From the IMG/VR virus record IMGVR_UViG_2529293141_000023: a DNA stretch of 19,068 nt; one strand, written 5' to 3'. The position numbers were made by a program. The DNA comes from a virus. Taxonomy: Duplodnaviria; Heunggongvirae; Uroviricota; Caudoviricetes. Positions 631 to 3,600 of the stretch are shown in pieces. Numbering within the stretch: the stretch's first letter is position 1; each line of letters begins with the position of its first letter.

Positions 631-3600
631 TAACTCGGTGGCCAGTTTTTGTTGACCACTTCATCGGCGGCATTCAGGAGGATGAAAGACATTGTTTCGT
701 CATAGTCCATCGGCACACCGCGAGCCTCGAACATCCCCTGGTAGGCCAGAACAACGGAGACCTGAAGGTTTGCATGAGTGGTGCGGTTCTTTTCGGTGTA
801 CATGTTCACGGCGGCTTTCAACTCTAAAGCCTGCGAGGCGTCCATGACCTCCAGCTTATCGATCAGGCGTTCATTCTGTCGCATGATTCCATAGGCTGGC
901 TGTTCGGTACGGTTCAGGGCTTCGGTGATAGCCTCGACCTCTGCGGTCTTGTTCAGCTTCTTAAAACGGCTCCGTAACTCAATCAGGGATTTACGGGAAG
1001 TCAGACGCTGATCGACACGCCAGATAAGGGTGTCAACGTCGCTGTAATCGATTTTACTCATAGGGCTTGCAATCTCCGGGCAGAACATTTATCATTAAAT
1101 TGGGGAAATTGTACTCAATTACAACCCCGCATCACGTTGATTATTTTATCATGATTTCAATAGATTGACAATGGATTATTTGCGGCTGGGTTGATTTATC
1201 AAATCATGCGTATAACGAGCTGTAAGCGGTTCTGAGGGCCACCCTGTGGTGGTAGGGTCACCTGAGAGGAGATAACGCCATACAGCGCGTTAGGTATTGC
1301 CCTGTGGCGTCCGTGGGTATCACTCCGCGCCGGGCACCCCACCCCGCTGCCAGGTGTCACGGTTTCCCAAAGGCAGAAACAGAAACCGTGTTGCGGTTCT
1401 GGTTCTGCATTGCCCAAAGGAGGCTAACCCGTTGGGCGTAGCCTGTCCCAAGATCAGGAACGGATGTTCCTTACCTAAAGAGTCTTGCTTAATTAACAAT
1501 CAATTAATACTCACAATCTCTTTAAGGTCTTGCCCTGGTCCTGAGGGTTCTAGTTTTATCTGGTGTGGGTAGGTTTATCTATAGTCTTATTGTGTCTGAT
1601 TTCTTTACACCACGGTGTCGGGATTCTTTACACCAGATGTCACCTGCTGTCTGATTTCTTTACACCTCTGAAGATTCCCCGGTTTGTCGTGGCGTCTGAT
1701 TTCTTTACACCGGGAGATGAGCCAACAGGCTCGACTCCACATGTGGGAAACAGGCCCCGGCCTAAAACCTGGACCCGGACGGGTGAGCGTAGCGAAAGGT
1801 TTTAAGAGGCTAGAATTTAAGAGAGAAATAATTAAGAGCCTGAGCGATTAATTATTGAACGATTAAATTATAAGATTAATAAGACCGTAGCCCGGACGGG
1901 CGAGCGGAGCGAGGTCTTATATATCTATTATTGTCTAGTGTGTCCCAAAAGACACATAGCCCCCCCTGAGTCAGACCACCCACAAACCCACCGTAATCAC
2001 CCCCCACAAATTCATCTGATACACATCACGACGTAGAAGTCAACATATACCTGATCATTTTGTTGCAATTTTGCATAAATTATTGTAAAATATAGACATA
2101 GCGTGATGTAGTGAGCATGTCTACTCGGGATCTGGAAACCCGCCGTTTTGCAACTCATCGCGTCACGCTGTGTACAGAGTCGCAACGTGTGCTTAGCCGA
2201 GCAATCAAGATCTGTACGAGTGAGCCGGGCGGCTTCTCCTCCGCTCTGGTTCCTCACCCTGTGAGCCTTGAACAACTCCACTTGCCAGGGTTCACAGTGT
2301 GATGTTCCTCTCAAGATATCACGCGAGATCTCCTTATCTCAAAAGCCTCCCCGAAAGGGCACAATCCAACGGCGTGGTAACCGTGTGGATGATTAACCGT
2401 TTACGGTTTCCGGCGTGTTTCAGTTCACGCCGTTTTCCTCTGGTGTCTTGTCGATGAGTCGCCACAGGAAAACTCAAGCGATAAATCTCCTCTTATTAAG
2501 TCCACCCGGTAACCTTCCCGGGTTCTTTTTTTTGTGGGTATTTGCCAAAAGGTTGGCGCTATTGGCGTGACGCCGCCAGGGGCGGCAAGTATCCACACAA
2601 AAAGGGTTTACCCTTTCCCTCCACAGAGGTGTGGGATCGGGGCTGGTGATGGGGTCCATGATGGACCTCTGATCCTATTCGCTGCCTCTCTCCTGTATCT
2701 CTAATATCCGATCTGGAGTCTCCCCAACTCCCGGATTCTCCGGTGCAACGCCGGGTATCACTGCGCCCCTGTGCGCTTCTCCACTCCTCAAGGAAAATTC
2801 AATGAATGCTACTCCTCGTTACCCTGTGACCCAGGGCGACATCATCGTGAGCTATGCTAGCTCACTTTTTGACCGCACCGAAGTAACCGCCCCGGATGGT
2901 CTCCCCGATCACGTCGATTGTGGCGACATCCTGGACAGCAAAACTTTTGCCCTGTATGACTCATCCGCCGCTGACGCTGGCAAGCCGATCATTAACCTGT
3001 CCAACATGGACGCCGACGGCAAGCCCAAAACGCTGGTCATTGTGGATCGCCACGTAGTGATCACGGATTTCAATCTGAAAGCCAAAGATGAGGCATCCAA
3101 GAAAGCCGCATTAGAAGCGCTGACCGCATCGGGTGAGATTCGCCTGGCTGTTAATTCTGATTTCCGTAAATCTCAAGGAGAGTAATCACATGGCTGTGGA
3201 TTTCAAAAGTTTTGAACGTCTCGACACGGTAGCGGCTATCAAGTCCGTTCCCGCTGGTAATCACCTGATCTCTGATCTGGGTATCTTCACTGGTGTTAAC
3301 TCCACTACCCCACGCGCTCAGGTTGTGGATATTGTGGAAAGCGCTGTTGCAGAGCTTGAGCAGGTCTCCCGCTACGGCACCGAAGTAAACAGCATCAAGA
3401 TGGATAAAACCATCCTCCGTGATCAGGAGATCCCACACTACGCAACAGAATCCGATGTGAAAACCGAAGATTGGCAATCCTTGGTAAGCCCGGCTAACCC
3501 GGATCAGGCTCAGGCGGTTGCGTCCGTCATTGCCGCTAAATCCGTGCGTATGCGTGATCACCACCTGGAGACTGTGGAAGCGACTTTAGCCCGCGCCCTG

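Follow-up and report, generated by a model that had tools for sequence, protein, structure and literature searches.

What the repeats crowded into a 1.7-kb non-coding region near the left end of the viral record IMGVR_UViG_2529293141_000023 (Caudoviricetes; 19,068 nucleotides, the whole of which is called the window below) are for is the question addressed here. An earlier note on this DNA had drawn attention to iteron-like repeats of 17 bp and to a pair of 25-bp direct repeats flanking an AT-rich core, and had proposed a packaging (cos/pac) site, a second origin or a recombination site. Sequence comparison led us to favour, with somewhat more confidence than doubt, the view that positions 1593–1962 are the replication-origin core of an integrative satellite of ~13.5 kb, which apparently parasitises phages of the genus Certrevirus, and that this core contains a replisome-entry element derived from the helper phage. 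The window retains a truncated copy of that satellite. The region is non-coding, as the note had stated: neither of the two E. coli genomes in which it occurs, at 99.6% identity, has a gene annotated in it (1089–2801). A plasmid collection contained no match to it.

Iterons and their putative initiator

Four 19-nt repeats in direct orientation have start-to-start spacings of 23, 32 and 45 (Table 1), and the whole array sits between divergent sigma-70 promoters. When the 17-mer of the earlier note was searched for with up to three mismatches, four matches were obtained against 0.04 expected (200 shuffles), confirming that the repeats are real; the spacing of 45–55 bp given for them, however, holds between the three perfect copies only. 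Every relative examined (the loci used for comparison carry L numbers) had three to four direct repeats at the same relative position, the sequence of which differed between elements, and most of these were semi-palindromic with an A/T-rich centre. The window has four copies of the TGTCTGATTTCTTTACACC type, L009 and L033 have four of GGAAAATATTTCCGCCC, L015 has three of TTAGGCAGATTTTGCCT and L019 four of GTACCAnnnnTGACACACCC, L020a and L020b have three each of TACGTCAATTTGACTGAACTT and AAGTTCGTAATGCGAAC, respectively, and the repeats of L021 and L034 are of the GGGTCATATTGAACCCCCTACCGGG type. Across the family the spacings cluster at 21–23, 32–34, 45–46 and 55–56 bp, and the best-fitting period is 11 bp with a mean deviation of 1.0.

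The iterons were found to vary together with a winged-helix protein of ~200 aa. The capsid proteins of L009 and L010 are identical and their flanks are more than 92% identical, and their iterons are unrelated; between the winged-helix proteins of the same two elements, 6 of the 12 predicted recognition-helix residues differ (TDRSVRNLLRDM versus TRQTVVKLLADM), while residues 1–52 differ at two positions only. L033, the capsid protein of which is 83% identical to that of the window, has both the recognition helix and the iterons of L009, and a common recognition helix is likewise accompanied by a common iteron type in L021 and L034. Seven of nine members of the winged-helix family matched PHROG replication-initiation families (lambda-O-like, DnaD-like; best E ~1e-7 to 1e-8), and the family profile gave weak RepA_N matches when compared with PDB (E ~0.07–0.08). 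The protein also has a low-complexity linker and an acidic C-terminal tail with a terminal Phe (...DLDPAF), which by analogy appears to resemble the acidic tips of SSB and gp2.5 that recruit replisome proteins. In intact elements, the origin is ~0.9 kb from the gene for this protein, which in E. coli LR-29-1 is WP_050500419.1. These comparisons support the conclusion that the 19-nt repeats are element-specific iterons co-varying with an initiator-like protein, as in a familiar kind of origin.

The binder of the iterons is therefore likely to be the winged-helix protein, the gene for which has been deleted from the window. An insertion sequence removed the left 7.5 kb of the satellite, including the integrase, the tape-measure protein, the winged-helix protein and small genes, and the leftward gene at 1061 lost its last 15 codons as well. 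Neither of the two small open reading frames (ORFs) that the earlier note had named as possible binders fits this role, since ORF 16015–16194 belongs to another island, and the 66-aa ORF 4273–4473 lies in the capsid operon of the satellite and is devoid of a DNA-binding signature. The ~145-aa protein encoded by a neighbouring gene was also considered, but it does not follow the iterons, being 89% identical between L033 and L015 despite their different iteron types, and it was rejected on this ground.

Two hairpins and a module common to satellites and Certrevirus phages

Downstream of the iterons, the 22-nt sequence CCCGGACGGGYGAGCGKAGCGA is present at 1774–1795 and 1891–1912 and nowhere else in the window (0 expected), as part of a wider repeat of 33 nt with 79% identity (1763–1795 versus 1880–1912). 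The recurrence that had been described as 25-bp direct repeats is thus genuine, but the copies are the loops of two hairpins with differing stems, here called copies 1 and 2 of hairpin 1 (HP1). HP1 consists of a GC mini-hairpin, [G/A]CCC-GGA(C)-GGG[C/T], and an invariant single-stranded GAGCGKAGCGA, both within complementary outer arms. Among 17 distinct satellite and phage sequences representing 10 arm pairs (for example, AAGACC/GGTCTT, AAAACC/GGTTTT, AACACC/GGTGTT, AAAACAT/ATGTTTT and TAGAGGC/GTCTCTA), 94% of the cells were paired over 7 bp of the outer stem, a level matched by none of 5000 partner shuffles. The loop of the left hairpin is shorter in L015, L021, L033 and L034, and the full loop duplicate is found in the E. 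coli-type lineage only, which argues that the conserved feature is two hairpins around an AT-rich core and not a direct repeat. The core was correctly recognised in the earlier note; its GC content is 0.27 in 1810–1869, ~95–165 bp downstream of the last iteron, and it is conserved in the relatives. From the iterons to the core with its bracketing hairpins the distance is ~50 bp.

The right-hand part of this region, from the AT-rich lead-in of HP1 copy 2 to the second hairpin (HP2), forms a module that is also present in phages. By blastn, positions 1847–1944 were 85–89% identical to intergenic DNA in 28 Certrevirus records, and the module matched an nhmmer profile at E = 6e-27 when all collected loci were searched. 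Although the earlier note was right to look for the counterpart in helper cis sites, it had co-resident prophages in mind, and the helpers are likely to be virulent Certrevirus phages instead. In phage CR3, the profile detected exactly two copies, at 138,262–138,366 (+) and 74,594–74,493 (−). The 138-kb copy occupies a 365-bp gap between leftward and rightward gene blocks, which is the main divergence point of the genome, and is flanked there by a leftward TTGACA-17-TAGAAT promoter and a TTGACA box facing rightward; it is preceded by ~170 bp of AT-rich DNA and is at the global minimum of cumulative GC skew. Variants of the module in satellites correspond to variants in phages. That of L006 (capsid protein 39% identical) is identical from HP1 to HP2 with the module of the 152-kb phage contig L005, and the HP2 region of L009 equals that of CR3 over 25 nt where the window differs. 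This agreement suggests that the module is still being copied from the helper of the moment or is under selection to resemble it. When base-pairing targets of the invariant HP1 loop, GAGCGTAGCGA, were sought in CR3, the modules themselves were recovered together with two one-mismatch sites lacking obvious meaning.

We propose that, after helper infection, the satellite initiator would bind the iterons and melt the AT-rich core, and that the helper-derived hairpin module, exposed as single-stranded DNA, would admit the primase-helicase and polymerase of the helper, so that the satellite would be amplified by the helper replisome. Replisome entry is favoured because the module is next to the iterons and AT-rich core, because in satellite and phage alike it resides in promoter-free DNA between promoters, because the phage copies are at or near two divergence points, and because the satellite yielded no replisome gene; of its proteins that were scanned, none matched a portal, terminase, polymerase, primase or helicase family. 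With the initiator gene deleted, the origin of the window is an orphan and would fire only with initiator supplied in trans. A more elaborate scheme is put forward tentatively, namely that the origin is a chimera in which a swappable initiator/iteron cassette is combined with a module taken from helper origins and re-copied for each helper variant, thereby capturing the helper replisome, and that an adjacent antisense RNA silences the three helper genes that the satellite replaces. Were this true, the module would also pinpoint the replication origins of Certrevirus.

Packaging, transcription and recombination as alternatives

It seems unlikely to us that the region initiates packaging, the repeats being a satellite pac bound by a TerS-like winged-helix protein, the module being a copy of the helper pac, or both. 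Such a role would suit a module that is the sole DNA within the 1.7-kb region common with the helper and that is kept identical to particular phage variants, and an element without a recognisable terminase must use that of its helper. Small terminases likewise combine an N-terminal helix-turn-helix with a C-terminal partner-binding tail, and in the phage the module is preceded by GATC-containing AAGATC repeats, which are reminiscent of P1 pac. The winged-helix protein, however, matches initiator and not terminase families, and has a low-complexity linker where the oligomerisation core of TerS would be expected, while the two CR3 modules are oppositely oriented, at distances of 11 kb and 75 kb from terL. 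In Certrevirus, the genomes show circular permutation, packaging is by the headful mechanism, and phiTE is a generalised transducer (PMC7344957), properties that imply low packaging specificity and so weaken the case for a dedicated pac. In the related phage KPP-1, a Mydovirus, the physical ends (a 514-bp terminal repeat) are in a convergent non-coding zone (PMC9862379), the CR3 homologue of which is at ~92.6–93.25 kb and thus at neither module. A better pac candidate is offered elsewhere: the other non-coding region of the intact L015, L019, L021 and L033 contains a second helper-like segment matching CR3 93,413–93,496, beside that zone. This region is deleted in the window, and no such CR3 match was found in the E. 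coli-type intact copies. What stands of the cos/pac proposal is that the module is common with Certrevirus; its use as pac is disfavoured by indirect evidence. Concerning the same zone, we observed that the first 17 nt of the phage PBES 02 record (KT353109.1) are the reverse complement of its last 17 nt, the record having been opened inside a 34-bp perfect palindrome, and that its ends correspond to CR3 ~92,735 and 92,810 in the convergent non-coding zone (palindrome at ~92.77 kb). These ends lend only weak support to physical termini at this place, because the break may be an assembly artefact.

We also doubt that the region serves primarily in transcriptional control, with the repeats as operators of a winged-helix regulator and the module as a helper-responsive promoter or leader, or as a put/nut-like antitermination RNA. 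TATTAT would then be the −10 element with HP2 at the 5' end of the RNA, and expression of the capsid operon would be timed to helper infection. Covariation of the hairpins involves G-T wobbles on the plus strand only, TATTAT/TATATA is conserved 6–8 nt ahead of HP2 in all variants, and the module is directed toward the promoter P_R, two intrinsic terminators (2411–2432 and 2504–2523) and the capsid genes, as in CR3 a rightward operon follows the 138-kb copy. The opposite orientation of the two copies is reminiscent of nutL/nutR or putL/putR, and the satellite family clearly uses RNA-level control nearby. On the other hand, the module has no sigma-70 −35 element and no promoter was found upstream of HP1; the iterons are ~350–450 bp from either sigma-70 promoter and overlap neither; the 74-kb copy of CR3 would transcribe antisense into a gene; and with two copies per phage genome the module is not a general middle or late promoter. 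No Rfam family was detected at gathering score in the window, in two CR3 regions or in L015, matches at E <= 5 were at chance level only, and the best matches of the winged-helix protein are again initiators. Site-specific recombination, in which the region would be an att, invertase or resolvase site for recombinases of the element, is very improbable. Direct and inverted repeats around an AT-rich core are typical of such sites too, and extra serine or tyrosine recombinases are carried by some relatives, but the element joins the chromosome in the 3' end of tRNA-Gly at 6564–6581, the repeats are in mid-element, 4.6 kb inside that boundary, and they co-vary with the initiator-like protein and not with integrase type. 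The recombination site suggested in the earlier note is accordingly rejected; the attachment (att) core is the tRNA-Gly segment at 6564–6581.

Several observations weigh against an origin with a replisome-entry element. Among the iterons, two 39-bp spacings (in L009 and L033) are off the 11-bp phase. The PHROG matches are moderate and confined to the winged-helix region, a fold that is also found in regulators and small terminases, and an initiator gene is absent in cis from the window, in which homology to the intact elements begins at 664. DnaA boxes are not enriched, 46 one-mismatch boxes having been found in the window versus 37 expected. The G-T wobbles of the two hairpins are no less compatible with a plus-strand RNA than with single-stranded DNA, and the TATTAT element between HP1 and HP2 makes a promoter or leader role possible. 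In CR3, GC skew is confounded by the direction of transcription, and the 74-kb copy is 5.5 kb off the second divergence point (69.05 kb), in antisense orientation between two co-directional genes. Finally, L020a, L020b and L034 are without the module; the sequences that replace it in L034 and L020a had no phage match.

Table 1. Positions of features in the window and, where a locus is named, in relatives
Feature	Position	Strand	Remarks
IS3-family transposase, C-terminal part	1–633		rve domains; piece spans 1–663
Satellite remnant	664–6581		99.9% identical to right-hand 5.9 kb of ~13.5-kb integrative element
Sigma-70 promoter of leftward operon	1143–1171	−	conserved; TTGTCA-17-TAAAAT, TG-extended; left boundary of inter-promoter region
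Iteron 1	1593–1611	+	TGTCTGATTTCTTTACACC; semi-palindromic, GTGT...ACAC arms, T-rich centre
Iteron 2	1616–1634	+	TGTCGGGATTCTTTACACC; degenerate (3 mismatches)
Iteron 3	1648–1666	+	
Iteron 4	1693–1711	+	CGTCTGATTTCTTTACACC
Spacer	1712–1762		conserved across satellites; palindrome CCACATGTGG; DnaA-box-like TTTCCCACA at 1742–1750, minus strand
HP1 copy 1	1763–1804	+	outer stem TAAAACCT/AGGTTTTA (1763–1770/1797–1804); inner mini-hairpin ACCC-GGAC-GGGT; single-stranded GAGCGTAGCGAA
AT-rich core	1805–1878		imperfect palindrome, arms 1811–1835 and 1848–1872; candidate DNA-unwinding element
Helper-like module	1856–1962	+	AT-rich lead-in, HP1 copy 2, TATTAT-containing linker, HP2
HP1 copy 2	1879–1920	+	outer stem ATAAGACC/GGTCTTAT (1879–1886/1913–1920); inner GCCC-GGAC-GGGC; single-stranded GAGCGGAGCGA
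HP2	1938–1957	+	GTGTGTC-CCAAAA-GACACAT; covariation-supported in satellites and phages
Sigma-70 promoter P_R	2063–2091	+	conserved; TTGCAA-17-TAAAAT; right boundary of inter-promoter region
Antisense segment, major capsid	2130–2152		antisense segments cover first 11–22 nt of helper coding sequence
Antisense segment, decoration	2176–2198		
Antisense segment, tape measure	2277–2287		
Lambda-gpD-like decoration protein	2802–3185		in remnant
gpE-family major capsid protein	3190–4209		in remnant
Cargo slot, protein of unknown function	4595–5383	−	
Cargo slot, protein of unknown function	5424–6038	−	
Att core, tRNA-Gly 3' end	6564–6581		18 nt; satellite homology stops 18 nt inside tRNA-Gly annotated in E. 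coli LR-29-1
P4-like island	6564–19068		DUF927 primase 12749–14887, P4-type integrase 17815–19068, Icd-like genes
Second helper-like segment	L019 1387–1436; L033 563–606; L021 531–571; L015 10130–10210		up to 90% over 51 nt
Tape-measure and PF26210 proteins	L010 3891–5993; L015 11553–13676 and 21–395	−	not in window
Cargo slot, L015	L015 6486–9403		AAA_15/AAA_21 ATPase and 452-aa protein; likewise in L033
Cargo slot, L034	L034 3250–6066		serine recombinase and two HNH proteins

The satellite family, its putative antisense RNA and related systems

The window is a composite of the end of an IS3-family transposase, a truncated capsid-encoding satellite, an att core and a complete-looking P4-like island, and two unrelated islands appear to be stacked in tandem at a single tRNA-Gly site. 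Intact copies of the ~13.5-kb satellite are found at tRNA-Gly beside actS in E. coli LR-29-1 and other genomes, and the P4-like island (6564–19068) is 99.9% identical to islands of Shiga toxin-producing E. coli strains. Because the repeat region is located in the remnant of the separate satellite, it is not part of the P4-like island. Judged by the hallmarks of P4-like satellites (alpha primase-helicase, Sid/Psu/delta, cos), the repeat-bearing element is not one of them; the P4-like features observed (DUF927 primase, P4-type integrase and Icd-like genes) are those of the island. The earlier proposal of a second origin is therefore supported as regards an origin, given the iterons that co-vary with an initiator-like protein, but not as regards a further origin for the P4-like element.

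From its sequence and distribution, the element appears to belong to an undescribed family of integrative satellites of virulent Certrevirus myophages. Neither a description of the family nor an account of Certrevirus origins or pac sites was found in the literature searched, which left subscription-only papers outside. All relatives have a non-coding region of 1.7–2.1 kb between the leftward gene for the ~145-aa protein and the rightward decoration and capsid genes. Intact relatives also encode a tape-measure protein of ~700 aa, with 36% identity to CR3_020 over ~370 aa, and a protein of 113–168 aa (PF26210, Phage_phiTE_211), in which a segment of 40–48 aa is 60–70% identical to the N-terminus of CR3_004. 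The CR3_004 gene is directly upstream of the helper decoration and capsid genes, between presumed portal/protease genes and the decoration gene. It would be unusual for a satellite to determine tail length besides head size. The full head module of cfPICIs (portal, protease, head-tail adaptors and terminase subunits) was not found; the elements have only the gpE-like capsid, gpD-like decoration, tape-measure and scaffold-N-terminus-like proteins.

Capsid homologues were found in Citrobacter, Enterobacter, Serratia, Cronobacter, Pectobacterium, Pluralibacter, Pantoea and E. coli, and these genera largely coincide with the hosts of the matching Certrevirus records. Pattern scans of viral_contigs yielded Certrevirus contigs and one satellite only, and scans of genome_contigs with capsid peptide patterns and a module DNA pattern yielded no true relatives, the six matches being in unrelated phyla with ~1–2 expected by chance. 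L015 (Logan ERR14942281_696) closes on itself through a 30-nt terminal overlap, leaving 13,670 bp of unique sequence, which suggests that a free circular or concatemeric form was present in the sample. In L020 (Pantoea cypripedii CP024768.1), two different family members are adjacent (~1–12400 and ~13000–20800), the second with its capsid and decoration genes relocated to the leftward operon; neither has a module of the Certrevirus type, suggesting a different helper for them. Between the capsid operon and the att site there is a cargo slot, the content of which varies among satellites and which looks like the defence/accessory hotspot of other satellites. A GC-rich block at 1230–1557 is strongly conserved across the satellites (for example, CCCCACCCCGCCGCCA and GCGAGCGCTGCCAAAGAGGCG) and ends in a plus-strand terminator-like hairpin followed by a T-run (1532–1548). 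Neither an Rfam match nor a promoter was found for this block, which may represent a second structured non-coding RNA.

Beside the origin, P_R drives a predicted non-coding transcript of ~430 nt, extending from ~2098 to the two terminators named above and containing no conserved ORF. Three segments of this transcript are antisense to helper genes, each beginning at nucleotide 2 of the helper start codon, and the targets are the three structural genes that the satellite itself duplicates, its own start regions being different. The antisense segment of L015 matches the capsid allele of CR3/CR9 at 22 of 22 positions and that of L033 matches the F1M1E/KaOmega allele (GGTAAT) at 17 of 17; when 622 CR3 ORF starts were scanned, the capsid start ranked first for L015 and the decoration start first for L033. 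For the window, an exact 11-mer antisense match at that register was obtained in 2 of 33 structural-gene starts, and at least one such match occurred in only 9 of 2000 shuffles. A blastn search of 2100–2215 against all phages gave no match, since in 2.3 Gb a match of 20 nt does not reach the E-value limit. Since the targets are exactly the three genes that the satellite replaces, the P_R RNA probably silences helper structural genes. No report of a satellite antisense RNA directed against helper structural or capsid genes was found in the literature covered. Within the same interval, AATCTCCTCTTATT at 2484–2497 is the exact complement of positions −17 to −4, the Shine-Dalgarno region, of the putative tail fibre gene CR3_033. 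This gene may be a fourth target of the RNA, or the segment may be a generic anti-Shine-Dalgarno sequence; taken alone the match is at chance level (E ~0.8).

Very few systems are known in which a satellite exploits a virulent phage (PLE/ICP1 and PICMI), and the closest parallel is with PLE. The PLE has a 2.7-kb non-coding region with RepA-bound iterons between divergent operons and replicates only during ICP1 infection (PMC7145576), and PLEs exchange replication modules composed of the initiator DNA-binding domain and the iterons (PMC8263062). The PLE non-coding region gives rise to abundant RNA, and satellites are under selection to lower helper capsid expression, in that case through proteins (PMC7567579). 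The present element is likewise a satellite of a virulent myophage with semi-palindromic iterons in a non-coding region between divergent operons, with initiator-domain/iteron swapping among family members, and, as read from its sequence, with its own initiator, no replisome and presumably helper-dependent replication. It differs from PLE in its hosts (Enterobacterales) and its likely helpers (Certrevirus), in bringing its own capsid, decoration and tape-measure genes where PLE remodels the ICP1 coat protein, and in the fusion of the origin to a module of the helper genome, a feature for which the PLE papers cited here give no counterpart. Sequence homology between the two was neither found nor expected, the RepA_N similarity having E ~0.07.

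Lambda ori offers a second likeness. It comprises four ~19-bp iterons, then an AT-rich stretch and then a palindrome, and O protein binds the iterons through an N-terminal winged-helix domain, which a flexible linker connects to a C-terminal part that recruits a partner; among lambdoid phages, the iteron sequence and the N-terminal domain of O co-vary. The order of elements, the architecture of the initiator and the co-variation are all alike in the satellites. In contrast, lambda ori is inside the O gene and the satellite origin is non-coding, separated by ~0.9 kb from the gene for the initiator; a P-like helicase loader was not identified here, the ...DLDPAF tail is more like an SSB tip, and the PHROG matches to the lambda-O-like family are moderate. 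The origins of SaPIs and other PICIs also have element-specific iterons at an AT-rich region, with specificity matched to the Rep of the island. SaPI Rep, however, is a helicase usually paired with a primase, neither of which was found here, and SaPIs, which rely on their own TerS for packaging, lack a helper-derived origin module. As for the module, P4 cos, a proven packaging site copied from the helper P2, is comparable in being a short cis segment nearly identical to that of the helper amid little other DNA similarity; unlike P4 cos, the module is present in two copies in its helper, which uses headful packaging.

Iterons as such belong to a familiar kind of origin; what is new is that here, in a satellite family apparently not described before, they are joined to a hairpin module copied from the helper. 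For the window itself the practical message is more modest, in that it holds an orphan site in a decayed element. The hosts of the family include E. coli, Enterobacter, Citrobacter, Cronobacter, Pectobacterium and Pantoea, and Certrevirus phages of some host genera, notably Pectobacterium, have been studied as biocontrol agents. The natural pairs in which initiator and iterons have been swapped are usable for specificity studies. If the proposed scheme is true, the origin and the antisense RNA together would explain how a 13.5-kb element replaces the determinants of head and tail length of a 150-kb virus, and the module would indicate, in a testable manner, where replication starts in an entire phage genus. 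The element would also represent a new way of hijacking a helper, in which a cis element is borrowed at the origin rather than proteins only.

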